Source: Nitrospirota bacterium
Lineage (GTDB): Bacteria > Nitrospirota > UBA9217
Length of the DNA: 31,776 nt
Assembly (NCBI GenBank): GCA_041495765.1
Contig: JBGQDI010000001.1
Coordinates: forward strand, 1-31,776
Reading direction: 5' to 3'
In this document: piece by piece, positions 12,597-31,776 of the stretch
Numbering within the stretch: position 1 is the stretch's first letter
Layout: every line of letters begins with the position of its first letter
Notes under the pieces: model-generated
The model's database searches: none
Seen by the model: the letters and a program-made list of their open reading frames with translations, nothing else
Told to the model about the DNA's origin: nothing
Position numbers and translations under genes: made by a program

Positions 12597-13931
12597 TTAA
12601 TTCTTCGTTTTTTCTTTGGCCTTATTCTTATCCGGTATCGCTTCCTTGCCCGGTTTTTTCCTGTCGTAAGAGTATTTTTGATGACAACCCGGAGCGCAGC
12701 TCCCGCCAGTGTCGGTCTTGACGAAATTCAAGGGCAGGTTCCATTTTCCGAAGAGGACCTTGTCCGCGATCAGCTTCTGGTTCTCGCCGGCATGGATCAC
12801 ATGACAGACCTTGCAGCGCTTGCCGCGGTCCTTCCGGTTCACATGAATATAGTGCAGGTTTCTATCGCCGTCCCGGAACCCCGTCGCATAGGAGGTTGTC
12901 GGGAACTTGAGCAGGTCGCGGTTATGACAGCTGAAACACAGCGGGAATTCCGTGTCGTTATAGGACACATAGAATTCCGTTGAGTATGGTTTGATCAGAA
13001 GCTTCTCATTCGGCGTTCCATGAGGATCGTGGCAGGCCGTGCACCTTCCGTCCTTAATGGGGCCGTGCAGAACGGTCTGGTTCTTCTTGATGAAATTCTT
13101 GTGGCAGTCGAGGCAGAAGTCCTTGCCGGCACTCGCCAGGAGCTTGGGTGCGTCGCTCGCATGAGGATTATGGCACGTTGCACAGCCCCGCTCTGTTTTT
13201 ATGGGCGGGTGGATGCTCTTCGCTTCCTTGAGCTTATCTTCGATCGCGGAATGGCACTGGTAGCAGAGGCCGGACCCTTCCGCGGCAAAGAACTTTTTTA
13301 CTGCCGAGCCGTGCGGATTGTGGCAGGAAGTGCAGCCCATATCAAGCGCCGGGTGCACGTACTTTTTCTTTATCTCTCCCTGCATGTCGCCGTGGCAGGT
13401 GAAGCACAGTTCAGGGCCTTCCTTTACGAGCAGCCGTGCGTTGTTCGACTCGTGCGGATTATGGCAGAACGTGCAGTCACCCGTAGCGGCGGGGCCATGG
13501 GGAAACTTGTAGCCCGTTTTGTCCGGATGGCATGATGTGCAGAGCTCTTTGGCCGGCTGCGTAAGGAGCTTCGGCTCTGCCGAATCATGAGGATTGTGGC
13601 AGGTCGTGCACATCCCGTCCTTGACCGGAGGATGGATATGTTTCATGGTGCCGAACTGGGTATGGCACTGAAAGCACAGCCCGGGGACCTCCTGGGAGAG
13701 CTTGAAGGTCTTGGTTTTCTTTTGCGGATGCGGCGTCAGGACCGGCTGATGACAGGACTCGCAGGGATCTGCCGCCGGATGGATATTCTTGGTCTTTAAC
13801 ATCCCCTGGTGGCATTGTGCAGTTACGCAGCCTTGCTCTGCTGAAGCGACAGGGGTGAATGCTCCAGCAACACCGAGGAGGACCACTGCAACCAGGGTCA
13901 GTGCGATCGGAAAGAACGGGATCTTTTTCAT
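12597..13931 (-). CDS. Periplasmic multiheme cytochrome c, about 15 hemes (paired CXXCH repeats)
   Basis: Signal peptide; 13 CXXCH plus CVTAQCH (CX4CH) and CAPGCH (CX3CH); repeated H.P....C..CH.PH units. Confidence 0.92.
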   Translation of the reverse strand: MKKIPFFPIALTLVAVVLLGVAGAFTPVASAEQGCVTAQCHQGMLKTKNIHPAADPCESCHQPVLTPHPQKKTKTFKLSQEVPGLCFQCHTQFGTMKHIHPPVKDGMCTTCHNPHDSAEPKLLTQPAKELCTSCHPDKTGYKFPHGPAATGDCTFCHNPHESNNARLLVKEGPELCFTCHGDMQGEIKKKYVHPALDMGCTSCHNPHGSAVKKFFAAEGSGLCYQCHSAIEDKLKEAKSIHPPIKTERGCATCHNPHASDAPKLLASAGKDFCLDCHKNFIKKNQTVLHGPIKDGRCTACHDPHGTPNEKLLIKPYSTEFYVSYNDTEFPLCFSCHNRDLLKFPTTSYATGFRDGDRNLHYIHVNRKDRGKRCKVCHVIHAGENQKLIADKVLFGKWNLPLNFVKTDTGGSCAPGCHQKYSYDRKKPGKEAIPDKNKAKEKTKN

Positions 13932-14381: not shown

Positions 14382-14471
14382 TTCTCGATATGGTTGCGAG
14401 TCCACACTCAAAAGTGGACCCGGTTCACCGCCGGCAGGAAAACGGACTGCCTCCGGAAAATGGGAACGCTC

Positions 14472-16949
14472 ATGAACCAACTTCGAAACCTGGTCTTTAC
14501 TGCGGTTCTTCTGGGTCTCACTTTTTTCGCGAGCTTCTGCCTGGCTCAAGTGAGTTCACCCGTGAGTCAGCCCGACATGACCGACCAGCGGCATACCAAA
14601 GAAACCAGCGCACACACGGTGGTCCCGCCATCGGCAGAAGCAACGGTCGTGGTAGAGATACCCCGGACCCAGTGGTGTCAATGCGTCCGGGGTATTCTCG
14701 GGGTCGAAGGCGGGGATGTTGCGGGGTGTGTCAAGAGCGGGGCTTCGGAAGAGAAGCTGAAGATCTTCCGGCAGCGCGGACAGGGCAGCGGGAGCTCGAC
14801 CACCGTAACGTCCCTTCTGGCTTTTGCAGGTTGCAGCGAAAGCGAGAACCGGAGGATAGGATCTCTCTCGTTCGAGCTGGAATGGAGGGACCGGCCCGCC
14901 AGTCCCCCAGGCGTAGCTGTATCCTCTTCTGCCAAGATACCGGCAGAAGAGGCGCTACCGGTCACCTGCGAATCTGGCGGGGTCAGCACCATTCAGGCAA
15001 CATTATACCGACATTCCAGGGTAAAACTCGCATCCGTTAACCCCTGGGATTGTGTCCACCCCGTCGGCACCCTCAACAATATCCCAACCGGTTCGGGGAT
15101 CAGGTTCGTCATAACCGGCAAGAACGCGTCCGGTGCGGTACTCTACCGCAAAGAACTGGATGAGGTGACGATCGAATATAATAAGAGGACAGCGCTCGGG
15201 ACCGTCACTGCCATGTCTTTCGTCCCCGTCCTTTCTCTGCCGGGAGATGCATCGCTGGTGGGAAGCGGACGCGTTCGTTTTGCCTGGACCGGCGCAGCCG
15301 GCTCGACCTCGTACCAGCTCCAGGTGTCGGAATCCCCGGGTTTCTCGCCGCTTGCTCTAGACGCTCCTTTGACGGCTACATCATATGAAACAACTGCCGC
15401 CCTGGAGTCCAAAACCTACTATTGGCGCGTAAAGGCCACGGACGGCTACAGCAACACCAGCGAGTGGTCTTCTGTCCGGAGTGTCACGGTCGATGCAGAG
15501 CCTCCAGTTAATACCACTGCCGATAACTTCATCAACAAGGGCGCTCCGGCGACGAACGCAGGCACGGTCGCACTGGTGATATCCGCTCAGAAAAGAACGG
15601 GCGTCACCGGCTACTCGATTTCAGAACGGTCAAAGAAGCCGGAGGCCGGCAAAACGGGATGGGTCGCTATTCCCTCCACGGCATCCTACGCAGCCGAGAT
15701 TCCCTTTACGCTGAGCAAAGGTGACGGGAACAAGAAGATATACGTCTGGTTCAAGGATGCTTGGGGGCATGTCTCCGCAGGGAAAAGTGGCTCGATCCTT
15801 CTGGATACTACGCTTCCCCAGACGATGATCACGAGCCATCCGTCTTCGTTGACCAATTCGACAGCAGCACAATTCTCCTATTCCTCCACAAAGCCCCGCT
15901 CGACACTTCATTGCGCTCTTGACGGCGGCGTGTTTTCGCCCTGCACCGGTACGACGACCTACGAGGGGCTTCCGGAGGGGCCGCACACTTTTTCGGTCAA
16001 GGCGATCGATGCCGCGGGCAATACGGACCTTGTCCCCGCACGCTTCGACTGGACCATCGACCTTACGCCGCCTCATACCACCATTACCATGCAGCCACCT
16101 GTTCGGACCGACTCGGCCTATGCCCGGTTCAGTTTTTCCTCATCCAAGCCGGGCTCGACCTTCCAGTGCCAGATCGACAGAAATGCCTCTGCAGCTTGCA
16201 CCGATCCCATGGAATATCCGGTGCTGACGGCGGGCCCGCATACCTTTCTGGTCATGGCGACAGATACGGTCGGCAATACCGATCCCGCCCCTGCCCGCTA
16301 CAGCTGGACCATCGCGCCGCCGTTCAAGACGGCCATCACGGACCACCCCTCCAATCCCTCATCATCGGTCAACGCCGGATTCAGCTTCGCTTCCACCTGG
16401 CCCGGAGCAACCTACCAGTGCCAACTAGATAGCGCCGGGTATTCCGTTTGTATTTCTCCAGTGACCTATACGGAACTTACCGAGGGCAGTCATACCTTCA
16501 GCGTCAAGGCCCTTGATCCCTCGGGCAATGAAGAAGTTACGCCTGCACAGTATGTCTGGCTGATAAGTCTGCCGCCGATCGCAAGATCACCGAAGCGCTT
16601 CATCAATAGAGGGATCAGATTTCCCGGTTATGTCACGGATAAGAACGTCGTCAAATTAACATTGGCAGCGGTAGGCACCAAGAACGTTACGGCGTACTAT
16701 ACATCGGAAGATCCCGAGAGGCCTGATCCCGCTGATCCGGCATGGATCGCGATCTCACGCCCCTCCCTGGAATTTTCCCGCGTGGTGCCCTTTACCATGA
16801 GCATAACCAAGGGCACCAAGACCGTATATGTTTGGTTTAGGGACGTGGAAGGGAACGTGTCCGAGGTGATCAGCGATAGCATCTACTATTACAATTCAAC
16901 GTACCTGTTGATCGCCTATATTGTGATCCAGGTGGCCCTTCTGCTGTAA
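14472..16949 (+). CDS. Secreted/surface protein with FN3/Ig-like repeats and a C-terminal hydrophobic tail (~825 aa)
   Basis: Signal peptide; FN3-like W..V.A.D segment; three ~85-aa repeats (T.IT..P...F.F.S......CxLD.....C......L..G.HTF.V.A.D..GN); two FIN.G...VWF(K/R)D..G.VS repeats; ends YLLIAYIVIQVALLL. Start may be 14460. Confidence 0.82.
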   Translation: MNQLRNLVFTAVLLGLTFFASFCLAQVSSPVSQPDMTDQRHTKETSAHTVVPPSAEATVVVEIPRTQWCQCVRGILGVEGGDVAGCVKSGASEEKLKIFRQRGQGSGSSTTVTSLLAFAGCSESENRRIGSLSFELEWRDRPASPPGVAVSSSAKIPAEEALPVTCESGGVSTIQATLYRHSRVKLASVNPWDCVHPVGTLNNIPTGSGIRFVITGKNASGAVLYRKELDEVTIEYNKRTALGTVTAMSFVPVLSLPGDASLVGSGRVRFAWTGAAGSTSYQLQVSESPGFSPLALDAPLTATSYETTAALESKTYYWRVKATDGYSNTSEWSSVRSVTVDAEPPVNTTADNFINKGAPATNAGTVALVISAQKRTGVTGYSISERSKKPEAGKTGWVAIPSTASYAAEIPFTLSKGDGNKKIYVWFKDAWGHVSAGKSGSILLDTTLPQTMITSHPSSLTNSTAAQFSYSSTKPRSTLHCALDGGVFSPCTGTTTYEGLPEGPHTFSVKAIDAAGNTDLVPARFDWTIDLTPPHTTITMQPPVRTDSAYARFSFSSSKPGSTFQCQIDRNASAACTDPMEYPVLTAGPHTFLVMATDTVGNTDPAPARYSWTIAPPFKTAITDHPSNPSSSVNAGFSFASTWPGATYQCQLDSAGYSVCISPVTYTELTEGSHTFSVKALDPSGNEEVTPAQYVWLISLPPIARSPKRFINRGIRFPGYVTDKNVVKLTLAAVGTKNVTAYYTSEDPERPDPADPAWIAISRPSLEFSRVVPFTMSITKGTKTVYVWFRDVEGNVSEVISDSIYYYNSTYLLIAYIVIQVALLL

Positions 16950-17414: not shown

Positions 17415-18854
17415 ATGAAAATGACCGACCTCTCCCCACTAGTGCTTTCCCCAGCCACGCCCTCGCATCAGAATAAGATGAAGGTTCTGCTTGTTGATGA
17501 TGAGGTCCTGATCAGATACTCATTACAGCGTCTGATCGAGCGGGAAGGTTTTAGCATCACAACCGCCGGTTCGGGACTTGAGGCGCTGCGGCAATTCGAT
17601 CAGGAAAAGCCCGATATCGTAATTCTTGATATCCGCCTTCCCGACACCAGCGGTTTGACTCTTCTGAAAACGATAAAAGAAATAAGCCCGTCGGTGACCG
17701 TTGTCATGGTAACTGCGTGCCCCGATATCCAAAGCAGCGTTGAAGCGATGAAAATGGGTGCCTATGACTATCTTGATAAGCCCATCGATCTCGAAAAGCT
17801 GTTGAATATCCTGCATACGCTGAAGCAGGAACGGCCCCAGGACAAGACCGTACAACTGCCGGGCAGCGTCGCGTTCCAAAGTGATGCCATGAACGAGGTG
17901 TTCAGGATCACCGAGCGGCTTGCAAATAAATCGGATGTAACGGTCCTGGTGCTGGGCGAAAGCGGAACGGGAAAGAGCTTCCTTTGCAAAGCGGTCCATG
18001 AACTAAGCCCGCGCAAGGGGAAGCCTTTTGTGGAGATCGGGTGCTCAACCATTCCCGATCATCTCATCGAGAGCGAGCTCTTCGGCTATGAAAAGGGCTC
18101 ATTTACCGACGCAAAGATGTCCAAAAAAGGACTCATCGAGACCGCCGAAGGAGGCACCCTTTTCCTTGATGAGATCGGGGATATGCCCTCGACGATGCAG
18201 TCAAAGCTGCTCAGTCTGATCGAAGAGCGGCGATTCAGGAGGATCGGAGGGCTTCAGCAGCTGAGCGCCGATGTCAGGATCCTCGCTGCTACGAACCGGA
18301 ACCTGCACGAACTCGTGCAGGAGGGTAAGTTCCGGCTCGATCTCTACTATCGCCTTCATGTGGTCACTATCGAAATGCCGCCACTCCGCGCCCGGAGGGA
18401 GGACATTCCCCTGCTGGTCGATCATTTTCTGCACCATTTCAGCGCGAAGCACGCCTGCCAGACCAACAGCCTGACTGCCGCGGCATTGGAAGCACTGCGG
18501 GAGTATTCCTGGCCCGGTAATTTGAGGGAATTAAAGAACCTTCTTGAAAAACTTGTTGTCATGTCCAAGGGCGACAAGATAGGTATTGACGATCTCCCGC
18601 CCTACATCCTGGCCAGGAAAGAGGTTGTCGCGCCGCCCGCGCCGCCGAAGAGCTCCGCGGCCCTTCCGGAACAGCCTTCAGAGAACGCTAATCGCAACCG
18701 CTTTTCGCTTAAAGTGCTCGAGGAAGAGTCCATTCGGGCGGCCTTAAAGACGGTAAAGGGGAACCAGCGTGAAGCGGCGAAACTGCTCGATATTACGCGG
18801 GACACCCTGCGCTACCGTATGAAAAGGCTGGGCATCAGCTCAATGCAGTATTAG
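17415..18854 (+). CDS. sigma54-dependent two-component response regulator (NtrC/AtoC family enhancer-binding protein)
   Basis: Receiver (VLLVDDE, LDIRLPD), AAA+ (GESGTGKS, GSFTDA, LFLDEIG, WPGNLREL) and Fis-type HTH (GNQREAAKLLDITRDTLRYR). Confidence 0.95.
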   Translation: MKMTDLSPLVLSPATPSHQNKMKVLLVDDEVLIRYSLQRLIEREGFSITTAGSGLEALRQFDQEKPDIVILDIRLPDTSGLTLLKTIKEISPSVTVVMVTACPDIQSSVEAMKMGAYDYLDKPIDLEKLLNILHTLKQERPQDKTVQLPGSVAFQSDAMNEVFRITERLANKSDVTVLVLGESGTGKSFLCKAVHELSPRKGKPFVEIGCSTIPDHLIESELFGYEKGSFTDAKMSKKGLIETAEGGTLFLDEIGDMPSTMQSKLLSLIEERRFRRIGGLQQLSADVRILAATNRNLHELVQEGKFRLDLYYRLHVVTIEMPPLRARREDIPLLVDHFLHHFSAKHACQTNSLTAAALEALREYSWPGNLRELKNLLEKLVVMSKGDKIGIDDLPPYILARKEVVAPPAPPKSSAALPEQPSENANRNRFSLKVLEEESIRAALKTVKGNQREAAKLLDITRDTLRYRMKRLGISSMQY

Positions 18855-19106: not shown

Positions 19107-20909
19107 TTAATAAGAATGCGTAGCGGCGTTATGCGTCACGCCGTGGCAGATCAGCGTACAGCTTCCGGCCCGTGACCCCGTGTCCGTAAAAAATGGATAC
19201 GTGTTGCCGGCTACGGGAGTGACGTAGCGCGTATCGAAATTGATCAGGTTGGTATGGGCGCCCGTCAACCCGTCGTCCGGGATCCCGTGCGGATCATGGC
19301 AGAGAGAACAGGGGGCATTGACCGTCCCCGTAATGTGGCCGCTGTGACCGCCCTTTCCGGCAAGGTTTTTCTTGAAGCTCATATCGCTCAGGATGCTGGT
19401 CCTGTTATGGCACCAATAACAGAGCTCATAGGTCGAAGGGCTTTCCATGATGTTGTCCCCGGTCTGGTACTGTTGCCTGATGAGCGGGCTGTACTGGGAA
19501 CCATGGGGGCCGCGGGGGCCCGATCCTCCGATCGCCTTGCTGTTGTCGGCGTCATGACAATCGGTGCAGGAGACCCTGCTTGACGTCGTCAAGGCGGGGG
19601 TGTTCGTTGAGGGGATGCTTGGCACGTCAAAATTCTTTCCCACGCCGGCCACGGGATGGTAGGAGGGGTTGATGGTCTGGAAAGCGACGCGGGTATTGAC
19701 GCTTTTCGCAACGCGCGGAATGGGCAGGAAGGTGGATTGCGCGGTCGAACTGGCGTGGCATTTGAAACAGATCTCGTATTCATAACTTGCATAATTGGGA
19801 GGCGTGATCCCGGCCCCGTTGATGTCAACGCCGCTCACCCCCTGCAGGCTGCCGCTTACCGCGGGCGTGGGCGCCGGTTGCCCGTTCGCGACATGGGGAT
19901 CATGGCAGTCGACGCATTCCACGTGTCCCGAGACCATAAGGGGAGATTCCTTCGCTTCATGATGGTTCGCCGTTACCCCGATGGTCGTGGCCTCCACCTG
20001 ATGGCGCGAGGATTTCTGGAACTCGGCCTGCACGTTCAGTGCAGCAACATTCCCGTTGTGGCAGGGATAGCAGTTGTTCTCTTCCTCAAGGTAATTAAGC
20101 AGCCGCTTTGGCCCTCCCGCGTTATGGGGAGCATGGCAGTTCTCGCATCCGTTCTGCTGAACGGTCGTCCGCCAGAAATCCGTGTTCACACCGGTCCGGG
20201 GCCAGGGGTTGGGCAGGGTGAGGTTCCAGGTGCTCTGCGAAGTTTTGTGCGGCGTATTGTCCCATCCTCGCATCACATGACACGATACGCACAGCTCCGA
20301 ACCGGTATTGTTCATGGCCAGGAACATCTTGTTGGAATTGTCATGAGGATCATGACAGGTCGTGCATTGCATGATCCCGTTCCCGTAGAACAGCAGGCCC
20401 GGCGGCGGTGAGGGCGAAAGCTCAGCGTTGGGGAGCGCATCATAATAGGAAAAAGAGACCGGATGGTGGGATGCGAGCGAGGTCCCGAAATAGGAAGGGC
20501 TTGTGGCGGGCATTCCTCCGGCAACGGTCATGGCGATCCGGTTCGACGGCTGCAGGGTCTGGCCCAGTGCGATCGTACCGTCATGGCAGCTCAGGCAGAG
20601 CCTGGTCGAGCCGGTCGGCCCTGCTGCTGACGCGGGGCTGCGCATGGTCTCGCTGGTATACGGCGTATACAGGGAATAGTTGATGCCCTCAATGTTCTTG
20701 TTCCAGAGGGGGGTCTGCGGGTTCGCATTATGCGGAGCATGACAGAATACGCAGATCCTGTCCTCGGTCAATGCCTTGATCGTTCCGGGTCCGGTCCTCG
20801 ACAGGTTATGCTTGGTATAGACAATGCTCATCTTTGCCTCGGTCCCGGAAACCCAAAGAACCGTTGCAACGGAGAGCAGGAGTGCCATGATCCGCGCGGG
20901 ACTGTTCAT
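19107..20909 (-). CDS. Multiheme cytochrome c, about 12 hemes, with N-terminal OmcE-like tetraheme module
   Basis: Signal peptide; 11 CXXCH plus CTLICH (CX3CH); N-terminus KHNLS..ICVFCHAPH..PLWN..LCLSCHDG..HHPV..CTTCHDPH..LCVSCH; ATGA overlap with the upstream NHL gene. Confidence 0.92.
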   Translation of the reverse strand: MNSPARIMALLLSVATVLWVSGTEAKMSIVYTKHNLSRTGPGTIKALTEDRICVFCHAPHNANPQTPLWNKNIEGINYSLYTPYTSETMRSPASAAGPTGSTRLCLSCHDGTIALGQTLQPSNRIAMTVAGGMPATSPSYFGTSLASHHPVSFSYYDALPNAELSPSPPPGLLFYGNGIMQCTTCHDPHDNSNKMFLAMNNTGSELCVSCHVMRGWDNTPHKTSQSTWNLTLPNPWPRTGVNTDFWRTTVQQNGCENCHAPHNAGGPKRLLNYLEEENNCYPCHNGNVAALNVQAEFQKSSRHQVEATTIGVTANHHEAKESPLMVSGHVECVDCHDPHVANGQPAPTPAVSGSLQGVSGVDINGAGITPPNYASYEYEICFKCHASSTAQSTFLPIPRVAKSVNTRVAFQTINPSYHPVAGVGKNFDVPSIPSTNTPALTTSSRVSCTDCHDADNSKAIGGSGPRGPHGSQYSPLIRQQYQTGDNIMESPSTYELCYWCHNRTSILSDMSFKKNLAGKGGHSGHITGTVNAPCSLCHDPHGIPDDGLTGAHTNLINFDTRYVTPVAGNTYPFFTDTGSRAGSCTLICHGVTHNAATHSY

Positions 20910-21961
20910 TTTTCGCCTCGTAACAGCTGAAAAATTTGGACACGTTGATTGTACGTATCACAGACATAGAGCCGCTCCCTGCGGTCCAGGAACAGACCTG
21001 ACGGCATCGAGAACTCGCCGGCGCCATACCCCCGTCCGCCTATCGTGAAAAGAAATGCGCCGGAGCGATCGAAGAGCTGGATGTTGTCGAACAGGGTATC
21101 AACGACGTAAATAACGCTTTGCCCGTCCACCACGAGGCCCTTGGGCATGGCGAAATCGCCGGACCCGTTCCCATGATGCCCGAAAGAGAACAAAAAGGCT
21201 CCCCCGGTACTGAAGACCTGGACGCGGAAGTTCATGGAGTCGATGACATAGAGGTTCCCGTCGGCTGCGGCAACGATATGGGTCGGGTAATTCAGCTGGC
21301 CCTTGTCACTTCCCGGTTCTCCGAAGGAAGAGAGAAATTCGCCTTGTGTCGTAAACGCATGCACCCGGTTCGCCACGGTGTCGACTGCATACAGGGCCTT
21401 TGTCCGCGGCGAAAATGCGAGGCCTGTGGGTCTCTGCAAGGGCTCGTTGCCCGCATTTTTGAGCGTGAAGAGGTACTCACCGGCCGGCCCGAACACATAG
21501 ATCGCGTGATTGGTAGAATCGGACACGTACAGCCTTGAGGCATCGTCGAAGGCAACGCCGACCGGGGTCAACAGGGTATCCTTTCCCGCCTGTGAGATCT
21601 TCACGTACCTATACTCGGACGGAATATACAAATGGACGCAGGGACCGCCCGTATCTGCTATGGCGATCCGGTCGTCATTGCCGACCGCCGTGGCGACCGG
21701 ACGGATGATGGCATTGTCTTCCGGTCGTCTGCCGAAGACGAGATACCTGAGGAGGTTCGACGTCGAGGTCCCTGTCTCTTTGAACCCTCTGATGGATTCG
21801 ACATATGCTGCACGGGACCGGTCGGAGTCGTCGCGCCACTGGGGCGCTGCATTCCCGGCCTCGAGGTACAGCGACCATTTCGACGCGCATCCGGCGCAGA
21901 GGATGGAGACGGCAGATAGGCCAGCAATAAGACAGGCGAACTTTTTAAGCATGCTAAGCAT
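20906..21961 (-). CDS. NHL-repeat six-bladed beta-propeller lipoprotein
   Basis: Lipobox CAGC; repeated P.G(V/L)A.D....YV.D..N.R(V/I)Q.F units. Confidence 0.9.
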   Translation of the reverse strand: MLSMLKKFACLIAGLSAVSILCAGCASKWSLYLEAGNAAPQWRDDSDRSRAAYVESIRGFKETGTSTSNLLRYLVFGRRPEDNAIIRPVATAVGNDDRIAIADTGGPCVHLYIPSEYRYVKISQAGKDTLLTPVGVAFDDASRLYVSDSTNHAIYVFGPAGEYLFTLKNAGNEPLQRPTGLAFSPRTKALYAVDTVANRVHAFTTQGEFLSSFGEPGSDKGQLNYPTHIVAAADGNLYVIDSMNFRVQVFSTGGAFLFSFGHHGNGSGDFAMPKGLVVDGQSVIYVVDTLFDNIQLFDRSGAFLFTIGGRGYGAGEFSMPSGLFLDRRERLYVCDTYNQRVQIFQLLRGEK

Positions 21962-21967
21962 GGTTAC

Positions 21968-22966
21968 TTATTGTGCCTTTTCCTGTCCGTCCAAGATCTC
22001 TATTCTTGCGTTCTGCTTCAGTTGCAGCTCCCATTCCGCTCGCCGTGTTTTCAGCGCAACAGCCCGAAGCCTGTTCTCAATGGCCGTGCTCACTTCCTGA
22101 TAGGCCTTCGGCTTTTCGGGGACATAATCGGTCAGTTTGATGATGTGGATGCTGTCGCGGGTCCTGATCACGCCGGAGAGCTCACCTACCTTGAGCTTCC
22201 GGGCAGCGTCATAGAGCAGGGGCTCCCGTTTCTTCTCCAGTTCATAGTTTTGAACAAGAAAGGTCCCGTCGGAGCGAAGGTTCGCCGGGTCTTTATCCTT
22301 GTCCTCCAGTATTCGAGCGAGGACCGCATTCGCCCGCTCAATCGATGCGGGATCGTCAAGCCCCAGAAAGAACGTTATGTCCGTTATGGTGATCTTTTCG
22401 GGATCCGTAAATTGGTCCTTGGTCCGTTCATACTCTTTTTTCCGTTCATCCTCGGGGATGACGATCTTCGCAACGGTTTCCGTAAAAAAGGCCTGCTGGA
22501 TGAGGAGATTGCGCTCGACGCGGGCGCGGAGGTCCGCATCGGTCAGGTGCTCTTTTTCCAGGAACTTCCCATACTCTTCTGCACTGCCTGCTTCCATCCT
22601 GAGCTTTTCCATTGCCTTGTCGAGGATGCCTGCTCTCAGGGTCAACCCCGTGCGCTTCGCCTCCTGGTACGCCAGCTCCTGGACGATCAGCAGGTCCATT
22701 GCCCGCTTTCTGGTCGCTGCCTCGGGTTCTGAAATCTTTTTGTTCGCGTTCGCCGTGCTGATCCGGTTCATCATTTCGATGAGCGCAAGCCTGGTGATAT
22801 TCGTTTCGTTGATCCGGGCAATAACAATGTTCTCATCACGGGGCGTCGCGGAAAGCGGTGCGGCCGGGACCGATGCGGCCGTCCGGTGGGTGACGCATGC
22901 GGCTGTGCTGACCGAGACAGCAAGGGTCAGAAGAACGAAGACGGAGCGGTGGTACAGTGGCTTCAT
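21968..22966 (-). CDS. SurA-N/parvulin-type peptidyl-prolyl isomerase/chaperone lipoprotein
   Basis: Lipobox TAAC; VIARINETNIT, L.....L.YQEAKR.GL, GELSGVIRT...IHIIKL. Confidence 0.85.
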   Translation of the reverse strand: MKPLYHRSVFVLLTLAVSVSTAACVTHRTAASVPAAPLSATPRDENIVIARINETNITRLALIEMMNRISTANANKKISEPEAATRKRAMDLLIVQELAYQEAKRTGLTLRAGILDKAMEKLRMEAGSAEEYGKFLEKEHLTDADLRARVERNLLIQQAFFTETVAKIVIPEDERKKEYERTKDQFTDPEKITITDITFFLGLDDPASIERANAVLARILEDKDKDPANLRSDGTFLVQNYELEKKREPLLYDAARKLKVGELSGVIRTRDSIHIIKLTDYVPEKPKAYQEVSTAIENRLRAVALKTRRAEWELQLKQNARIEILDGQEKAQ

Positions 22967-23018
22967 GATAGGTTACCTCACGGGAATAAGCGTTTAACGG
23001 TGCTGTCGTGTCTTAATT

Positions 23019-24017
23019 CTATTTATGCTGCGTCGGAGCGGTCAGGATCTCGATCCTTGCGTCCTTTTTCAGCTCCTGCTCCCACGCCTGCCGGCGTTTG
23101 ATGAGCGCAGCCGTCCTGAGCTTGCCGGTCAACACACCTTTCGCTTCTTCGTAGGTCATTGTCCTCGCGGGAGTGTACCCGGTCAGCTTCAGAATGTGTA
23201 CTGCCTCTTTGCCGGCAATGGTGCCCGAAAGTTCGCCGATCTTGAGTGTTCGGGCGGCCTCGTACAACACCGGGTCCTTTGCCTTTTCCATGACGACCAG
23301 ATGAACGCCGAATGTGGCATCACTGACCAGATGTGCCGGGTCCCGATCCTTGTCGGCGCTCAATGCCGATAGAAGTCCCTGGGCCCTCTTCATCGCCTCC
23401 TCCTTGCTCAGCTCAAAGGGAACGGCAATATCCACGACAGACACTTTCTCAGGGACCACATATTCGCCTTTGGTGCGGTCGTATTCGTTTCGCATCTCGT
23501 CATCGGTCACGTTGGCTTTTTTGATGACCTCATCCGTCAGCATCTGCTGGACGAGCTGGCTTCGCTCGACCTGGGCGCGAAATTCCACCGCAGTGATATG
23601 GTTCTTCGCCAAATACTCCCGATAGCCCTCTTCGTGGCCCAATTTGCTGATGAACTGCTCCATGGTCCTGTCAATGAGGGAGTCTTCCACGCGCATTCCC
23701 CGACGCGCTGCTTCCTGGAGTGCCAGCTCTTGAAGGATCAGGATGTCCAACACCCTGCTCCTGACGGCTTCTCCCGATTGTGTGCCGGAGCCCTGTCGAT
23801 CTACGGCATTGAGACGGCTCATCATGTCGAGAAGGGTATAGTTCGTAATCTCCGTTCCATTGACCTTTGCCACGACGATTGCTTTGTCCTCCTCCGTTAA
23901 TTCAATGGGGCGCATGGCGGCCGCCGGCTCCGGACCAGGATGTTTCGCGCATGATGCGCCGAGAAGGGTCGCGCCAAGCATGATCAGCATTGAAGCAGTA
24001 CGTACAGCGGATCTCAT
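23019..24017 (-). CDS. SurA-N/parvulin-type peptidyl-prolyl isomerase/chaperone lipoprotein (paralog)
   Basis: Lipobox GASC; VVAKVNGTEIT, LQELALQEA, GELSG.I....VHILKL; co-linear with 21968-22966. Confidence 0.85.
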   Translation of the reverse strand: MRSAVRTASMLIMLGATLLGASCAKHPGPEPAAAMRPIELTEEDKAIVVAKVNGTEITNYTLLDMMSRLNAVDRQGSGTQSGEAVRSRVLDILILQELALQEAARRGMRVEDSLIDRTMEQFISKLGHEEGYREYLAKNHITAVEFRAQVERSQLVQQMLTDEVIKKANVTDDEMRNEYDRTKGEYVVPEKVSVVDIAVPFELSKEEAMKRAQGLLSALSADKDRDPAHLVSDATFGVHLVVMEKAKDPVLYEAARTLKIGELSGTIAGKEAVHILKLTGYTPARTMTYEEAKGVLTGKLRTAALIKRRQAWEQELKKDARIEILTAPTQHK

Positions 24018-24056
24018 AAGGTTCCTCCAGGATAGTTGCGATCTGCGGGGCTGTCT

Positions 24057-26105
24057 TTAGAACAGCGACCTGCGCAGCGTCATATAGTAATATTGGGACA
24101 GCAGTGCATTGGTCTCTGTTCCGTTCTTGACATTTGATCCGCCCTTTGACGCTGAACGGCTTATTTGCATGCCGGTGTCCAGAAAAATGAGGCCGATCCT
24201 CCAGGTGAGAAAGGAGTTCAGCGCGAGCATTTCCGAGTCCACGAGCGATCTCGTGATCGCATAGGAGCCCGTAGCGAAAAAATTCAGTTTTTGAGCGGGG
24301 AACTTCATGTCCATTCTTACGTTCACGCCGAAGACCTTTTGCAGGTATGCCGAGCCGATGGGCACCGAAGCAGAGGGGAAAAATTCCGTGCGTAAATAGG
24401 AGATGTCCGCAAAGACATTGGTCCTGTCGGAAATGGGGGACAGGTACTGCGCCATTCCCTTCCAGGATTCGTAGGGGTTCGTTGAGGAGCGAAAGGTCAG
24501 GCGTTCCAGCATCCCGGAATACTGGTCGATGCGGCAGCTTAATCCGATGGTCTCGGACTCGGTCTTGTCCGCTCCGCCCGCGTAGGGTCCCGAAGGCATT
24601 TGCTGGTTCGAAGCAAAGTAGCTGTAATAAGCGCTCAGCAGATTGTGCAGAAAATCGACCCGGATCGAATATCCCTGCGATGTTGCATTGACCCGTGACT
24701 GCTGCGACAGGGAATAGTTGATATGGAACTCATAGACCGCCAAAGGATCGGGCAATGGCGTCATCGGGAACACGCTTACTACCGTGATCAGGACGCTGTT
24801 CCCCGAGTGGGCGATCGAATAGTCGGTCGGCGGCAATGTTATCAATACTCCGGTAAGCGGGTCTTTTACCTTGACGACGATGGTGCTATCGAGGACGTGC
24901 TGCTGGGCCAGGGGAAACTGCACGGTCAGCGCAAAACGCTGCACCTCGTCGAGAATGGAAGGCGTACCCAGACGCTCTGTACTCATTTCGCCGAACGATA
25001 CCGCAGCGGTGAGAAGGCCGGTGGGAATGATCTTCGTGTACGTGCTCCCCAGCGTCTCAGAACTGGTCGTGATCTCGCCCGAGACGGACCTGGCCGAGAG
25101 GTCGTTGACGGAAAGATTCGTTACCAGGCTCTGGTAAAGACGGTGGGTAAGGTTGAACGCGGTGCTCGAAGAGCGGTTGAATTCCTCATGTGCCGGGTTC
25201 GTACCATCGGCCGCTGTGCGGTCGTTCTCGTCCTGGTATGCGAACGACGCTGCGCCAAGAAGGTTCCCGGGGAGGGGGGCGGTCAATTGTTCCGTCCACA
25301 TGAGCGTATGGGTCTCAAGCCCCGGGGCAAGGAACCTGGTCTGAGCAGTGTCGGTGTTGTTAATGCGGCTGTCAAAAGCGATGTCGGCGTATCTGAACGC
25401 ATTGCTATACCCATATTGCAGGTGGGAGGAGTGGACCCCTGAGGACGATGACGATTCGCTGTGCGAATAATTGGCCAGGTTCGCCATCAGCGGCGTTACA
25501 TAACCGGCCTGCGCGTGGTAGGATCTTGAGTCGACCTGGTTGTCCACGGATTGCGTCTTGTTCTCGGAGTAGCCCGAGCTGAAGCTGAAGGGTCGCCCCC
25601 GGTAGGTGAAAGCGGCCCCTTTTTCGTCCAGGGTGGACGCCTGTCCCTGCATGAAGGTCATTGCGCGATTGGAGAACTCGGTGTGCTGCACGAAGAGATC
25701 GAGCGTGTAGGGGTGTTCTGGCAGGAGTGTTGTCCTTAGTTCATAGTCCATGGCGGACCCGGAACGCGAACCATTGCCCGGCCCTCCCACTTCCCGTTCC
25801 TGATTGAGCCCTTCCGAGAGGCCGGCTTTGAAGATCGCGAACCTCGGATGATACACAAAGCCATCGGCGCTCAGGTTGATCTTTTCGCTGAAGATCCTGT
25901 CGGAGGCATTCGTCACCTGGATGCCCTGCCGGTTCTCTGTTGTTTGCGACATCATAACGAGATCAAGATCTCCGTGAAATGATTCGAACGTGGGGACAAA
26001 AGTCAGTTCCTGGCCGAACAACGTCGCCGGCAGATTCAAGGCAAAAAAAAACAGAACAGTGCGGGTCATACCGTTGAGATGGGTCAGTCGCCTGGACACT
26101 AGCAT
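24057..26105 (-). CDS. Putative outer-membrane beta-barrel protein with internal insertion domain
   Basis: Signal peptide; S/T/Y/F-rich alternating strands; C-terminal YYYMTLRRSLF (terminal Phe, BAM-type); GGAG RBS. Confidence 0.72.
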   Translation of the reverse strand: MLVSRRLTHLNGMTRTVLFFFALNLPATLFGQELTFVPTFESFHGDLDLVMMSQTTENRQGIQVTNASDRIFSEKINLSADGFVYHPRFAIFKAGLSEGLNQEREVGGPGNGSRSGSAMDYELRTTLLPEHPYTLDLFVQHTEFSNRAMTFMQGQASTLDEKGAAFTYRGRPFSFSSGYSENKTQSVDNQVDSRSYHAQAGYVTPLMANLANYSHSESSSSSGVHSSHLQYGYSNAFRYADIAFDSRINNTDTAQTRFLAPGLETHTLMWTEQLTAPLPGNLLGAASFAYQDENDRTAADGTNPAHEEFNRSSSTAFNLTHRLYQSLVTNLSVNDLSARSVSGEITTSSETLGSTYTKIIPTGLLTAAVSFGEMSTERLGTPSILDEVQRFALTVQFPLAQQHVLDSTIVVKVKDPLTGVLITLPPTDYSIAHSGNSVLITVVSVFPMTPLPDPLAVYEFHINYSLSQQSRVNATSQGYSIRVDFLHNLLSAYYSYFASNQQMPSGPYAGGADKTESETIGLSCRIDQYSGMLERLTFRSSTNPYESWKGMAQYLSPISDRTNVFADISYLRTEFFPSASVPIGSAYLQKVFGVNVRMDMKFPAQKLNFFATGSYAITRSLVDSEMLALNSFLTWRIGLIFLDTGMQISRSASKGGSNVKNGTETNALLSQYYYMTLRRSLF

Positions 26106-26231
26106 GGGACTCCCTTACTATGCATCGATACCGCTCGATACCCGCTCGTCACTGTTCTGTCCTGGCTCCGTTCAGGTCAATCTCTCTTGCATGAACGCAA
26201 TGGGTTCTTTGCATGCCGAGGGCCGGGCCGG

Positions 26232-26762
26232 CTATTTCAGCATATAATCATTTTCCGAACTGTGCGGATCATGACAGTCCGTACAGGACAGATCACCCGC
26301 CGCCTTGTGGGTCTCCCGCGAGGAGACCTCGGCCTTGTCATGGCAGTAAAAACAGAACTCGGCAGGTTCCGAAACGAGGAGAAATGCCTTTCCTGAACCA
26401 TGAGGATGGTGGCAGATGCGGCACCCGCCCGTGGCCGCGGGTCCATGGACCTTCCTTTTCCGGAGATCCAGGGTATGACAGTTCAGGCAAAGCTCTTCCA
26501 CCGGCAGAATGAGGTCCCCGCCTCCCTGCCGATGGCATGCCTCGCATAATTTAGCTGCGTAGGGTCCATGATTTCTGACCTGAGGAGCATCGGAAGCCGT
26601 ATGGTTCGTTTCCTTCGTTCGTCGTCCTGGTTCGGCTTTCTTCATTCCGGGAGCAGGAACCCCGTCGAAAAAAAAGTTCAAGGTCTGGTATCGCGTCTCC
26701 GGCGAGCAACCCGGGACCAGCGCAACAATGCTCATCATGAGCAATAACTGCGAGAGCTTCAT
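26232..26762 (-). CDS. Pentaheme cytochrome c lipoprotein
   Basis: Lipobox VPGC; RYQTLNFFFDGVP; CEACH, CLNCH, CRICH, CFYCH, CTDCH. Confidence 0.92.
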   Translation of the reverse strand: MKLSQLLLMMSIVALVPGCSPETRYQTLNFFFDGVPAPGMKKAEPGRRTKETNHTASDAPQVRNHGPYAAKLCEACHRQGGGDLILPVEELCLNCHTLDLRKRKVHGPAATGGCRICHHPHGSGKAFLLVSEPAEFCFYCHDKAEVSSRETHKAAGDLSCTDCHDPHSSENDYMLK

Positions 26763-27931
26763 GGTTTTTCTTTGGCAGCCCCGCCCTTTTCTTCTGCTGA
26801 TTTTTTGCCTTGCTCGATCTTCTTCAGTTTTTCCTTGAGCTGTTCCAAAAGCTCGGCGTCGCTAGGATATTTTTTCCCGCGTTCCTCACCCATTGCATAG
26901 ATGTTCAGCGACCGGTCGCCATTCTGGTTGGTAACGATGATCAAGTTCTCGACGATAAAATTCGGGTCGATGAACTTTTGGAAGAACTGAATGTTGTCAT
27001 AATCGACCACGATCTGTGCGGGCAGGTTCAGGTCGCCCGGCCCCTCGCCCGTCGTTGCGAAGGGGAAGAGCAGATAGCTTTCCTTGTTGAATATCTGTAC
27101 ATTGCCGAAACCGGCATCAAGTGCGTAGATCCGGTCCTTGCGGTCCAGGGCGATACCTTTCGGACGGGCAAAAGTGCCGCTTTCCTTGCCCATGACTCCG
27201 ACCGTGCCGAGACGGTGGCCGTCACGGTCGTATTTGAAGATCTTGAACCTGCCGGCATCGGATACGAACAAGTGTCCCTCGGAGTCAAAAGCCAGGTTGG
27301 TGGGGCGATGAAGCCGTTCCGCCGCTTCTCCCTCCTGGCCGATCTTTCTCAGGACGTCGCCGGTCTTGCTGTCAAGGACAACGACCTGGCTGTTCTGGAT
27401 GTCGGCGACGAAGAGCTGGCCCTCATAGGGCACAGCGTCGACCGGTTTCCATCCATCGGGATAGCCGAAGGCATTGATGAAGAAATCGTTCTTATCAAAG
27501 ACAACGACCTGGCTTCTGACCGTATCGGTGACGTATTTGGTGCCGTCGGGCGCGATGCGTATGTTCAGGGGCAGAATGAGCTTGCCTCTGCCCTGGCTTC
27601 CCGTGAACGTACCGAAGGTCTTGTTCACCAGGTCGATGACGATGAGCCCCTGGTTCACATCGCAGACATATATCTTTCCCTTCGAGATGGCGACACCGTA
27701 GGGCTTGTCTATCCTGAGCCCGCTTTCCTTCTCACCGGTCACGAAGGTCTGGAACGAGGATTTTCTGGCGACGATGTCCTTTTCGCCGGTCAAGGACATG
27801 AGAAACTGGATCCGGGCAAGGTCCGGCGGAGGCGGATAGAAGACCTTGGGCGCTTCCACCGGTGCATGCGCAGCACAGGACGTAATGAGAAGGAAATGGA
27901 TAAGAACAAGGATCTTTTTTACACTCTTCAC
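26759..27931 (-). CDS. NHL-repeat beta-propeller lipoprotein
   Basis: GTG start with GGAG RBS; lipobox ITSC; repeats KPYGVAI, RPTNLAFD, RPKGIALD. Confidence 0.9.
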   Translation of the reverse strand: MKSVKKILVLIHFLLITSCAAHAPVEAPKVFYPPPPDLARIQFLMSLTGEKDIVARKSSFQTFVTGEKESGLRIDKPYGVAISKGKIYVCDVNQGLIVIDLVNKTFGTFTGSQGRGKLILPLNIRIAPDGTKYVTDTVRSQVVVFDKNDFFINAFGYPDGWKPVDAVPYEGQLFVADIQNSQVVVLDSKTGDVLRKIGQEGEAAERLHRPTNLAFDSEGHLFVSDAGRFKIFKYDRDGHRLGTVGVMGKESGTFARPKGIALDRKDRIYALDAGFGNVQIFNKESYLLFPFATTGEGPGDLNLPAQIVVDYDNIQFFQKFIDPNFIVENLIIVTNQNGDRSLNIYAMGEERGKKYPSDAELLEQLKEKLKKIEQGKKSAEEKGGAAKEKP

Positions 27932-28043
27932 CGGATGTTCTCCATTTCCCGGCACTTTTCCACGAAAAGTACCGGACATGTTGAAATTGCGCTGCTTTCT
28001 TCTGGCTGAGCTTGCAGCGCATACCTGATTACGAAGGTGTAAC

Positions 28044-29176: not shown

Positions 29177-29210
29177 TGCAATTAGAGTGCCGAATAAAAA
29201 CACATTGATT
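29177..29210 (-). promoter_or_regulatory. sigma54 promoter of the omcE-like gene with candidate IHF site
   Basis: CGGCACTCTAATTGCA (29177-29192); AAA-CACA-TTGATT (29198-29210, one mismatch to the IHF consensus). Confidence 0.75.
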
Positions 29211-29697: not shown

Positions 29698-29713
29698 TGG
29701 CATTCATTGTGCA
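29698..29713 (+). promoter_or_regulatory. sigma54 promoter of the large cytochrome
   Basis: TGGCATTCATTGTGCA (GG-N10-GC). Confidence 0.65.
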
Positions 29714-29852
29714 ATTAGGACTATCAAGAAATTATGCCATTTAGGTTTTTCCCCCAAGGTAAGGCATGTTTTTCGGTATGGCAGGATCAAGAGGGTGAGC
29801 GGGAACAGGAATCTGAATTAAGTCACGAAACAATCCGAAAAGGAGACGCAAC

Positions 29853-31776
29853 ATGCATGTTAAAAAAAGTTTAATGCTGTGGGTTGCCGTACTTGCCCTG
29901 GCACTTCCGATGATGCTTGCCGGGACCGCCAGTGCCAAGTACATGGGCGACGGCGCGGTACAGGACGGCGGGACCGGCGGCTGGACAACGCCCAACGATA
30001 TGATGTGCATCGTCGGCGTACACGCTGACGGTACCTTGGATATTGCTGACGGCGTGACAAACGCCAGGGACTGCATCTACCTCCAGACAGGGACCATGAA
30101 TGGCGGAACAGCCTTCGACCTGACGGGGATGACCACATCTGCTGCATGTAAAAACGCAGGCGGCACAGGAAACGACGGTGCAGCACATGCCTGGGCGACC
30201 ACCTACTGCTCCAAATCCTTGAAGGGTCTGGACAGGACCCAGAAAATGTGCGAAGGGATTGGCGGCACCTGGGTGACCTCCGGCAAGTGCGTCGCCTTCG
30301 GCAGGGCGTTTAAGGGCCAGGATGCCAGCGGCACGCCTCTGGCGATCGGGACGAAAGGCAATACTGCCGCGGGCTCGGGCTTCTGCTATGCGAAGATGAG
30401 AACGGGCCTTGCAGATGCCAGCTGCCCCTCTGTCGTTGGCAGCCTTTTCGGGACCAAAACTGCGACATCGACTGAAGCCTTCGCCTATTCGGCGCCGACT
30501 TCAACGAATTGTACCTATGATTTCGGCATCAACGGCGTTCTCGATGCTGCGCTCACGAAAGCCAATGGCACGACCTACGCGGCTGGCACGAGTCTTGATC
30601 TGAGCGCCGTCGCTACACAAGGCGACTGTCTTGCCAATGGTGGTAAATGGGAACCCTGGGTACCCATGGGCACGTCAGCTGTAATCGGCTCCATTACTGG
30701 CGTTACCTTCGATCTCACCCGGCAGGCGGTTAACGCCGATGAGGGTTGCCTCCATTGCCACAGCACCAAGACCGAGTATAACGGACCTGCAGAGAGAGAG
30801 AAAGACAGCTATCTCAAGACCGGCCATAAGAATATGCTCCGGAAAGTAACAGCCGGCAATAACTATGCAGGCGCTGATGGTGCACTGTATACTGCATATG
30901 CGGCCGGATCCTTAAACTTCGGCACCACCGGTAATAACGACGCAACCGCCACTGTCGCTGGTGTTGCCAAGCCGCTCCTTTACCTTTTCGGTGACTGGAT
31001 GGCGCCAGCGCCTGCCGGTCTCGATGTTGTTGTCAGTATGAGCGGAGCAGCAAAGTATAATGGCGGCAGCGACTATAGCTGCGCAGCCTGCCATACGGCA
31101 GGTTGGAGCGACACCAGAGCAACAGCCGGTCTTTGCTCTGCTTCTTCAAAGACCAATTCCGCTACTTGTACGGCAGCTGGCGGCACCTGGACCCCACTTT
31201 CCGGTGTACAGGCCATCGGTACCCCCGGCTACGCTGCAAAACAGCCGGGCGATCCCTTCGGGGGGATCACCTTCGGGGCAGCAGGCCAGTGGGATAGTGA
31301 CGGCATTACTTGCGGAAGGTGCCACAATGCAACCGTTCCGTCGGTATCAGCGGCACAGATCGCTGCATCAGCCTTCCCGGCAACCGCTCCCACGTCCGGC
31401 GGAATGGGCGCGCTTGCAGCGGGCGTAACAAGGAACAGCCTCTGCTTCGGTTGTCACCAGAGCATGGCCAAGACCAACAATGGCATCGGCGCGGATGCGG
31501 ACCTTGCGAATCCGACGGCTCTTATTGTCAAGAACACCGCAGTTGCACCGGCCTATGTCCCCGGATTCAGCGGCCATGTGCTCGGCAACTCGTTCCTGAA
31601 TAGCCCGCATGCACGGTTCACCGGGTCTGTCGTGCCGAACTCTCTCGGCAAGTATGATCTGGCAACCAATACGGCTGCGAACTACAACAGCACGTTCAAG
31701 GGCTACACCTGCTGGCAGTCACCTACTTCCAACAGCCCGGCAAAGACCAATGCCGATGGTACTGAAATAAAGACCA
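29853..31776 (+). CDS. Large secreted multiheme cytochrome c with Cys-rich CxxxGGxW modules (partial, at least 641 aa, open at the window end)
   Basis: Not in the ORF track; translated manually with no stop. AGGAG RBS; signal MHVKKSLMLWVAVLALALPMMLAGTASA; CLHCH (30747), CAACH (31080), CGRCH (31311), CFGCH (31443). Confidence 0.9.
   Translation, partial: MHVKKSLMLWVAVLALALPMMLAGTASAKYMGDGAVQDGGTGGWTTPNDMMCIVGVHADGTLDIADGVTNARDCIYLQTGTMNGGTAFDLTGMTTSAACKNAGGTGNDGAAHAWATTYCSKSLKGLDRTQKMCEGIGGTWVTSGKCVAFGRAFKGQDASGTPLAIGTKGNTAAGSGFCYAKMRTGLADASCPSVVGSLFGTKTATSTEAFAYSAPTSTNCTYDFGINGVLDAALTKANGTTYAAGTSLDLSAVATQGDCLANGGKWEPWVPMGTSAVIGSITGVTFDLTRQAVNADEGCLHCHSTKTEYNGPAEREKDSYLKTGHKNMLRKVTAGNNYAGADGALYTAYAAGSLNFGTTGNNDATATVAGVAKPLLYLFGDWMAPAPAGLDVVVSMSGAAKYNGGSDYSCAACHTAGWSDTRATAGLCSASSKTNSATCTAAGGTWTPLSGVQAIGTPGYAAKQPGDPFGGITFGAAGQWDSDGITCGRCHNATVPSVSAAQIAASAFPATAPTSGGMGALAAGVTRNSLCFGCHQSMAKTNNGIGADADLANPTALIVKNTAVAPAYVPGFSGHVLGNSFLNSPHARFTGSVVPNSLGKYDLATNTAANYNSTFKGYTCWQSPTSNSPAKTNADGTEIKT

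Follow-up and report, generated by a model that had tools for sequence, protein, structure and literature searches.

The DNA analyzed here (the window, 31,776 bp) is the entire contig C1 (JBGQDI010000001.1) of a Nitrospirota metagenome-assembled genome (MAG G000, GCA_041495765.1; 2.41 Mb, 264 contigs, estimated completeness of 65.7%). One end of the window is occupied by the 5' part of a gene for a large c-type cytochrome, called here the octaheme cytochrome, since its full-length relatives carry eight heme sites. The gene lies divergently to a gene for a tetraheme OmcE-like cytochrome, which heads an omcE-type cluster, and a sigma54-type promoter element faces each of the two genes. The product combines a rare heme-free head with a multiheme core and is probably a terminal cytochrome of the outer cell surface. 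The coordinates of all features are collected in Table 1.

The reading frame starts with ATG at 29853, and the sequence AAGGAG (29840–29845) is located 7 nt 5' of it. A preliminary description of the window, made from the DNA letters, had reported a frame open to the window end, ten non-heme Cys within about 270 residues and CXXCH motifs at residues 299, 410, 487 and 531. The open frame was confirmed, and these coordinates and counts are all correct. Since the gene ends at the contig edge, it is cut by the assembly and is not a pseudogene. The cut falls after heme site 4; the four hemes of that description therefore reflect truncation as a heme number, and eight are expected. A search of the MAG with the window protein for a second copy or for the remainder of the gene matched only the window itself.

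The N-terminus of the product is a Sec-type signal peptide, and A28 and Y30 at its cleavage region are conserved across the octaheme family. The signal peptide has no lipobox Cys, hence the octaheme cytochrome is not a lipoprotein. The non-heme Cys of the N-terminal domain occupy residues 52, 74, 99, 119, 133, 146, 178, 191, 220 and 259; beyond this domain, Cys outside CXXCH are found at 428, 439 and 620. Ala (15.3%), Gly (13.4%) and Thr (11.5%) together make up 40% of the 641-codon product.

The expected remainder of the gene was deduced from homologues. Full-length relatives comprise ~900–1,100 aa and are 38–66% identical to the window protein. Two full-length paralogues of 1,073 and 1,059 aa (60% and 53% identity) are encoded by G016, and one relative of 1,029 aa (50% identity) by G012, both genomes belonging to sister genera. 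In a protein database clustered at 90% identity, the family is represented by 112 clusters, with a best identity of 66%. The few clusters bearing names are Nitrospirota MAG proteins, annotated by NCBI as "PKD domain-containing" or "carboxypeptidase regulatory-like". Conservation of Cys and modules was assessed in an alignment of 74 family sequences, and heme ligands and motifs were analyzed in 66 members. Exactly eight CXXCH are present in 64 of the 73 full-length sequences of the alignment (7 to 15 in the rest), and all eight sites are invariant or 98% conserved. Past heme 8, the homologues carry PKD and/or CarboxypepD_reg (prealbumin-like) domains according to Pfam, and the family profile matches solved PKD and prealbumin-like domains. 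In P0002 and P0004 the C-terminal domains are assigned to PF18911/PF00801 and PF13620.

A candidate for the missing 3' end was detected by searching with the C-terminus of a homologue. The start of another contig of the same MAG (C6:3–353) encodes a 116-residue fragment with the end of a PKD domain and a CarboxypepD_reg domain. This fragment is 31% identical to residues 899–1005 of P0006 and 31–32% identical over the immunoglobulin (Ig)-like tail. It is followed by a gene for a 331-aa SurA-like lipoprotein (C6:460–1455). The fragment and the SurA-like gene may represent the missing 3' end of the octaheme gene and a downstream chaperone, as in G016. There (C3:300000–319999, L013) two octaheme paralogues stand in tandem, a histidine kinase gene lies between them, and a SurA_N-like gene (~248 aa) comes after each; further along, a third related cytochrome (824 aa) has a CarboxypepD_reg tail. 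In G012 (C161:1–19000, L014), four large PKD-tailed proteins are encoded in a row on one strand, namely a 1,073-aa open reading frame (ORF) containing P0004 and proteins of 1,098, 795 and 1,200 aa. At least three of the four match cytochrome families. Near this row lies a gene for a 444-aa paired-CXXCH multiheme protein, which shares a Pfam profile of multiple paired-CXXCH repeats with the window ORF 12597–13931(−).

The octaheme gene is patchily distributed: 8 of 301 sampled genomes of the phylum carry it, and none of five genomes of the same genus does, three of which are at least 90% complete. In a search of read runs, only sediment metagenomes, with two runs, contained the window sequence.

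The heme-free N-terminal domain precedes the first heme site directly. Each of its ten Cys is 97–100% conserved. The AlphaFold2 model calculated with the family alignment (predicted local distance difference test, pLDDT, 88.4; predicted template modeling score, pTM, 0.85) is mainly beta with five short helices. Strands carry Cys 52, 119, 146, 178 and 220, and short helices carry Cys 74, 99, 133 and 259. This alternation of strand and helix would fit sequential disulfides 52–74, 99–119, 133–146, 178–191 and 220–259 in the model.

No relatives of the domain were recovered from the collections of known families and folds. Residues 1–270 gave no match in Pfam and NCBIfam, and no curated family covers them. 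With Foldseek, the best E value of the model was 1.1 against the PDB and 0.36 against the AFDB clusters. Comparison with 48,161 chains by VIA-align yielded none at Z ≥ 2, an unusually empty result that may partly reflect the elongated model. In the ESM Atlas, the shape search gave TM (template modeling) scores of at most 0.30, and the feature search gave no usable match. When 1.84 billion protein representatives were searched exhaustively with a profile, only 121 contained the domain, which starts near residue 27 in most of them. All carriers of at least 800 aa have 5–26 CXXCH, and the short matches look like fragments. Among the weak matches of the domain profile, P0210, P0213, P0214 and P0216 share this architecture as distant members. 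P0208 was rejected as a relative: it is an unrelated repetitive eukaryote-like protein that matched by chance. Thus, the head is a rare domain confined to the octaheme cytochrome family. The earlier view of a large, divergent multiheme cytochrome whose Cys-rich head lacks hemes was borne out, and this head is conserved. Several carriers (P0117, P0128, P0133, P0140, P0141 and P0157) are proteins of 1,364–1,840 aa with 20–26 CXXCH; the head thus occurs on far longer heme chains as well.

The head is partly composed of a repeated unit. The motif C-x3-GG-x-W occurs in three copies (C133, C259 and C439), compared with 0.0065 expected from composition, and none of 20,000 shuffles reached three. Pairwise profile alignment (hhalign) relates C133 to C259 (probability 83%, E 1e-5), C439 to C259 (74%, E 3e-5), C99 to C259 (68%, E 5e-5) and C439 to the module following C620 (49%, E 2e-4). 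The unit spans ~20 residues with a consensus of about (D)L(S/T)-x2-T-T-x3-C-x3-G-G-x-W. In the models it forms a short N-capped Cys-bearing helix, a GG turn and a Trp-led strand. The copy with C428 and C439, located between heme sites, is a clean indel, being present in 52 of the 74 sequences and replaced by a clean gap in the others. Its two Cys are predicted to form a disulfide (428–439). The recurrence of the module and its insertion between heme sites, both proposed in the preliminary description, are upheld by the shuffles, the profiles and the indel. The partner of the invariant C620 is likely a Cys in a fifth module (KxDCExLYGAGxW) past the contig end. Distant members such as P0216 contain more copies of the module, some of them in tandem.

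Table 1. Features of the octaheme cytochrome gene and its surroundings in the window
Feature	Coordinates	Strand	Remark
5' 641 codons of the octaheme cytochrome gene, open to the contig end	29853..31776	+	~1,030 codons expected from full-length homologues
Sec-type signal peptide, residues 1–28 (...TASA/KY)	29853..29936	+	read from the translation
Heme-free N-terminal domain, residues 29–290	29937..30722	+	10 conserved Cys; mostly beta strands and short Cys-bearing helices
Module copy at C99, TTSAAC-KNAGG	30129..30170	+	GG kept, W not
Module copy at C133, LDRTxxMC-x3-GGTW ... C146	30216..30290	+	
Module copy at C259, DLSxxxTxGxC-LANGG-x-W	30594..30650	+	
Heme site 1, CLHCH, residues 299–303	30747..30761	+	immediately past the N-terminal domain
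Heme site 2, CAACH, residues 410–414	31080..31094	+	
Module copy between hemes 2 and 3, C428 ... C439-x3-GGTW	31134..31190	+	
Heme site 3, CGRCH, residues 487–491	31311..31325	+	
Heme site 4, CFGCH, residues 531–535	31443..31457	+	
Invariant C620	31710..31712	+	
Sigma54-type −24/−12 element, (T)GGCAT-N5-TGTGCA	29699..29713	+	140 nt 5' of the octaheme ATG
Sigma54-type −24/−12 element, GGCAC-N5-TTGCA	29177..29191	−	faces the OmcE-like gene
Tetraheme OmcE-like cytochrome, 254 aa	28234..28998	−	divergent neighbor; PDB 7TFS E 4e-19, 9YUQ E 2.4e-20
Rest of the omcE-type cluster: NHL propeller, 176-aa multiheme, 682-aa barrel, two SurA-like, second NHL propeller, 600-aa multiheme	19107..27979	−	
NtrC-type sigma54 activator (receiver, Sigma54_activat, HTH_8)	17415..18854	+	PF00158 E 3e-65

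The octaheme and OmcE-like genes are separated by an intergenic region of 854 bp. The pattern GGCAY-N5-KTGCW has two matches in the whole window (0.58 expected), both located in this region, one facing each gene. Each of the five genomes that show the divergent pair has paired −24/−12 elements between the two genes, with spacers that differ from genome to genome. The conserved forms are TGGCAT-N5-TGTGCA on the octaheme side and GGCAC/T-N5-TTGC(A/T) on the OmcE-like side. The divergent sigma54 control region, suggested earlier from this window, is thus real and conserved in five genomes. In G265, the intergenic region linked to an MtrB gene has no such site. Sigma54-dependent, coordinated expression of the two genes is well supported by these sequence elements, and the NtrC-type activator encoded in the window is a candidate regulator of both promoters. 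Between this activator gene and the 444-aa multiheme gene of the window, there is an 851-aa ORF (14394–16949, +) with Big_13, Y_Y_Y and Ig-like matches, possibly another surface protein of the same regulon.

The linkage with omcE-type barrel clusters, which the preliminary description had drawn from a single locus, recurs. The divergent pair was found in G000, G016, G113, G203 and G287, representing four genera and two families. In the metagenomic contig L018, a member only 38% identical to the window protein is the first gene of the omcE-type cluster and is co-directional with it. The gene order of the cluster is the same in G016 and L018. At the far end of the G016 cluster (L012:3977–7774), a 1,265-aa protein with several CarboxypepD_reg/SdrD_B-like domains is encoded. 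Other members adjoin different conduits: in L016 and L017 the octaheme gene is located directly 3' of genes for an MtrA-like protein and MtrB_PioB, and in G265 it adjoins MtrB_PioB, the OmcE-like gene being on a different contig. Since the neighbors include MtrAB as well as OmcE-type conduits, the family is not bound only to OmcE. In L022 a member lies within a multiheme island. In L019 (the contig of P0051, labelled Verrucomicrobiae), a member is followed by genes for a 186-aa c7-like cytochrome, Mo-pterin, 4Fe-4S and NrfD-type membrane subunits and mono/dihaem cytochromes c. This ACIII-like quinol module could feed the octaheme cytochrome.

The carrier genomes encode dsrA and/or dsrB; therefore, these Nitrospirota have dissimilatory sulfur metabolism. 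G016, G113, G203 and G287 carry dsrA- and dsrB-like genes, with one in-frame stop in the dsrA match of G113 and G203. In G000 only a dsrB-like match was found (C165:4803–5669).

The eight-heme core was modeled with residues 278–850 of P0005, the closest full-length homologue (pLDDT 78, pTM 0.80; hemes are absent from the model). For the eight hemes, seven conserved non-motif His and three conserved Met are available. Therefore, one heme could have His/Met ligation or an open site, as described for OcwA (PMC6703420). In an all-against-all structural search, the core was aligned with four multihemes across its whole length: MccA (4RKM, Z 6.7 over 308 aa), OcwA (6I5B, Z 6.0 over 293 aa), the surface-layer (S-layer) undecaheme cytochrome 6QVM (Z 4.4 over 288 aa) and ONR (8RV0, Z 3.0 over 191 aa). 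The remaining chains gave Z ≤ 2.4 over ~50 aa. Because these scores are modest, they are read as the same broad scaffold, the c554/NrfA-type one of MccA and of the surface reductases OcwA and OmhA, and not as family membership. SirA and MccA are the top matches among the Swiss-Prot models. In the ESM Atlas, the neighbors of the core are c554/c7-type multihemes (TM by row 0.42–0.66, ~290–345 aligned residues). Some of them bear sorting tails of the type IX secretion system (T9SS) or Ig/cadherin domains and are therefore surface-targeted. When the core was modeled without the head, the heme-1 segment remained poor (pLDDT < 50 at core residues 16–43), which hints that heme 1 packs against the N-terminal domain in the complete protein.

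The octaheme cytochrome is probably an outer-surface terminal cytochrome of extracellular electron transfer (EET) in Nitrospirota of anaerobic sediments, an interpretation that we hold with moderate confidence. The Sec-exported protein of ~1,030 residues would act at or beyond the outer membrane. Its beta-rich head of 270 residues would be held by about five disulfides and is built partly from the repeated unit of Cys-helix, GG turn and Trp strand. Electrons would arrive via a porin–cytochrome conduit, formed here by the barrel, the 176-aa cytochrome and the OmcE-like filament and in other lineages by MtrAB. The eight hemes would relay them either toward a partner that is insoluble or extracellular (reduction of minerals) or away from one (uptake from solids). 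Docking, surface attachment or substrate contact could be provided by the head, which lacks hemes, and by the Ig-like tail. Transcription would be sigma54-dependent, and an enhancer region in common together with the NtrC-type activator encoded nearby would coordinate it with that of the OmcE-like subunit. Adhesin character, mineral contact and a role as second substrate of the barrel, all put forward in the preliminary description, are conjectural.

The PKD and CarboxypepD_reg tails of the homologues, which are typical of surface or secreted proteins, speak for an outer-surface location, as do the conduit genes next to several members. Several observations weigh against it. The C-terminal domains of the window gene itself are not on the contig. 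The protein has neither a lipobox nor a recognized outer-membrane secretion signal, and its localization, like its partners, substrate and function, is one that we infer. The structural likeness of the core is weak (Foldseek E ≥ 0.1, with MccA ranked first at E 0.1; Z < 8), and its best match, MccA, is a periplasmic enzyme. In a search of the PDB, the family profile recovered no multiheme cytochrome (OcwA, MccA, MtrC or OmcE) and yielded only PKD domains, prealbumin-like domains and marginal c-type fragments. Two of nine gene contexts (L021 and the contig of P0023) have no EET neighbors, the member standing alone. None of the RNA runs searched for the octaheme sequence contains it.

Alternatively, the protein could work in the periplasm as a catalytic enzyme with eight hemes (MccA/SirA/OTR/ONR type), reducing a soluble sulfur or nitrogen oxyanion and using the N-terminal and Ig-like domains for oligomerization or partner binding there. 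Such an enzyme would agree with the ranking of MccA and SirA/MccA in the structural comparisons, with the enzyme-like spacing of ~70 residues per heme and with the conserved His, which leave one heme that may have Met or an open distal site. The sulfur metabolism of the dsrAB carriers and the Mo-pterin/FeS/NrfD quinol module of L019 would also be compatible. However, the CX15CH heme site is present in none of the 66 members, heme 8 being a plain CGQCH. CXXCK is absent from the window protein and from the 66 members, whose conserved sites are all CXXCH. Proteins of the NrfA family have three long helices bundled at the C-terminus (PMC6703420); the core model lacks such a bundle, only short helices following heme 8 before the PKD-type domains. 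Partners resembling mccBCD were not seen, and members repeatedly adjoin outer-membrane conduits (MtrAB, OmcE-type barrel). Furthermore, OcwA and 6QVM, which score nearly as high as MccA, are surface reductases, and the tails argue for the cell surface as stated above. A periplasmic enzyme is therefore considered unlikely.

The octaheme cytochrome could also be a dedicated part of the OmcE-type nanowire apparatus: a cytochrome at the tip, cap or base, or else another cargo of the 682-aa barrel, with the head docking on the filament or the pore. The conserved divergent arrangement with its paired promoters in five genomes and the position of the distant L018 member at the head of the cluster fit this possibility, as do the SurA-like genes 3' of the octaheme gene in G016 and of the candidate 3' fragment in G000. 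The poorly modeled heme-1 segment hints at a unit of head and heme 1, and the OmcE operons of Desulfuromonadia are stated to encode no tip candidate (PMC13712944), which leaves this role open. A dedicated nanowire part is improbable, however, as members occur with MtrAB and no nearby OmcE (L016, L017 and G265), some stand alone, the protein has no sequence or structural similarity to OmcE, and the published minimal omcE clusters lack the octaheme gene (PMC13712944). A paralogue of OmcE (tetraheme, ~230 aa) was ruled out by heme number, signal peptide and lack of similarity: a PDB search with the profile of the family retrieves no OmcE, in contrast to the neighboring gene (P0115).

That the protein serves chiefly in attachment or as a structural component of the cell surface (adhesin or S-layer-like), with hemes that are secondary or act as a redox sensor, is very improbable: its Gly/Ala/Thr-rich composition with few charged residues, disulfide-rich head, Ig-like C-terminal domains and CarboxypepD_reg neighbor in G016 would suit such a role, but the eight strictly conserved heme sites and distal His are under strong constraint, and members with additional C-terminal hemes (up to 26 in total) have them in place of the Ig-like tail, which indicates selection on electron transfer.

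Among the known systems, an outer-surface terminal cytochrome is most readily compared with OcwA of Thermincola potens and the S-layer undecaheme cytochrome of Carboxydothermus ferrireducens (6QVM). OcwA, a relative of MccA and NrfA, is a terminal reductase of the cell surface (PMC6703420). Both proteins are large surface terminal multihemes built on an NrfA/c554/MccA-type scaffold, which the octaheme core resembles weakly, and not on the MtrC scaffold, and the mixture of conserved His and Met ligands in the octaheme family is compatible with them. They contain 9 and 11 hemes, whereas the octaheme family has 8. In contrast to them, the family originates from a diderm, is linked to outer-membrane barrels and has no three-helix bundle. 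Neither protein has the 270-aa disulfide-rich head or the PKD/CarboxypepD_reg tails, and neither shows significant sequence similarity to the family. OcwA-like cytochromes with 8–13 hemes in porin clusters were reported in a 2026 preprint (10.64898/2026.05.27.727921).

The sulfite reductase MccA/SirA is likewise octaheme and gave the highest-scoring structural match of the core. MccA and OcwA share an additional beta-sheet domain (PMC6703420), and a comparable sheet region is located between hemes 1 and 2 of the octaheme model. Unlike MccA, whose heme 8 site is CX15CH, the family has no such site and no mcc accessory genes, and a Cu-site signature was not identified in it. MccA is periplasmic, whereas the additional head, the tail domains and the gene neighborhood of the family speak for the outer membrane.

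Some octaheme members occupy the position of MtrC, directly 3' of the MtrA-like and MtrB_PioB genes, and the family gives weak matches to PF22113. MtrC/OmcA/UndA have 10–11 hemes, an LXXC lipoprotein signal and two beta-barrel domains, whereas the octaheme family has 8 hemes and no lipobox, and structural searches with the core gave no match to the MtrC-type fold. An MtrC-type decaheme cytochrome was thus ruled out by heme number, signal peptide and lack of similarity. An OmcE-like subunit, a pair of NHL beta-propellers, two multihemes and the large barrel make up the published omcE cluster of Desulfuromonadia (PMC13712944), and all these parts recur in the window cluster. The octaheme gene is additional, is not OmcE-like and has so far been found in clusters of the Nitrospirota type; SurA-like genes are present in these, too.

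As a kind of system, large multihemes of the cell surface next to porin conduits are established. The octaheme family, its head, the mini-module and the sigma54-coupled pairing with omcE-type clusters in Nitrospirota are undescribed in the literature searched, and a search for the combination of multiheme, PKD and carboxypeptidase-regulatory domains found no paper.

Outside Geobacter and Shewanella, EET is mostly inferred from gene clusters. The octaheme family adds to these an unannotated class of large terminal cytochromes with a head that has no known structural relative. The class is tied genetically and regulatorily to OmcE-type nanowire clusters in sulfur-cycling sediment Nitrospirota. 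Known OmcE operons are stated to encode no candidate for mineral contact either (PMC13712944), and the co-regulated eight-heme neighbor is a concrete candidate for the tip or mineral-contact role. With the family recognized, the EET potential of sediment metagenomes would be better annotated. It is a speculative and rather doubtful proposal that the fold-orphan N-terminal domain represents a new docking head, which mounts the eight-heme terminal cytochrome on the OmcE-type nanowire or barrel as a tip, cap or base. If true, it would provide the first genetic handle on nanowire termination and on contact with minerals or partner cells.

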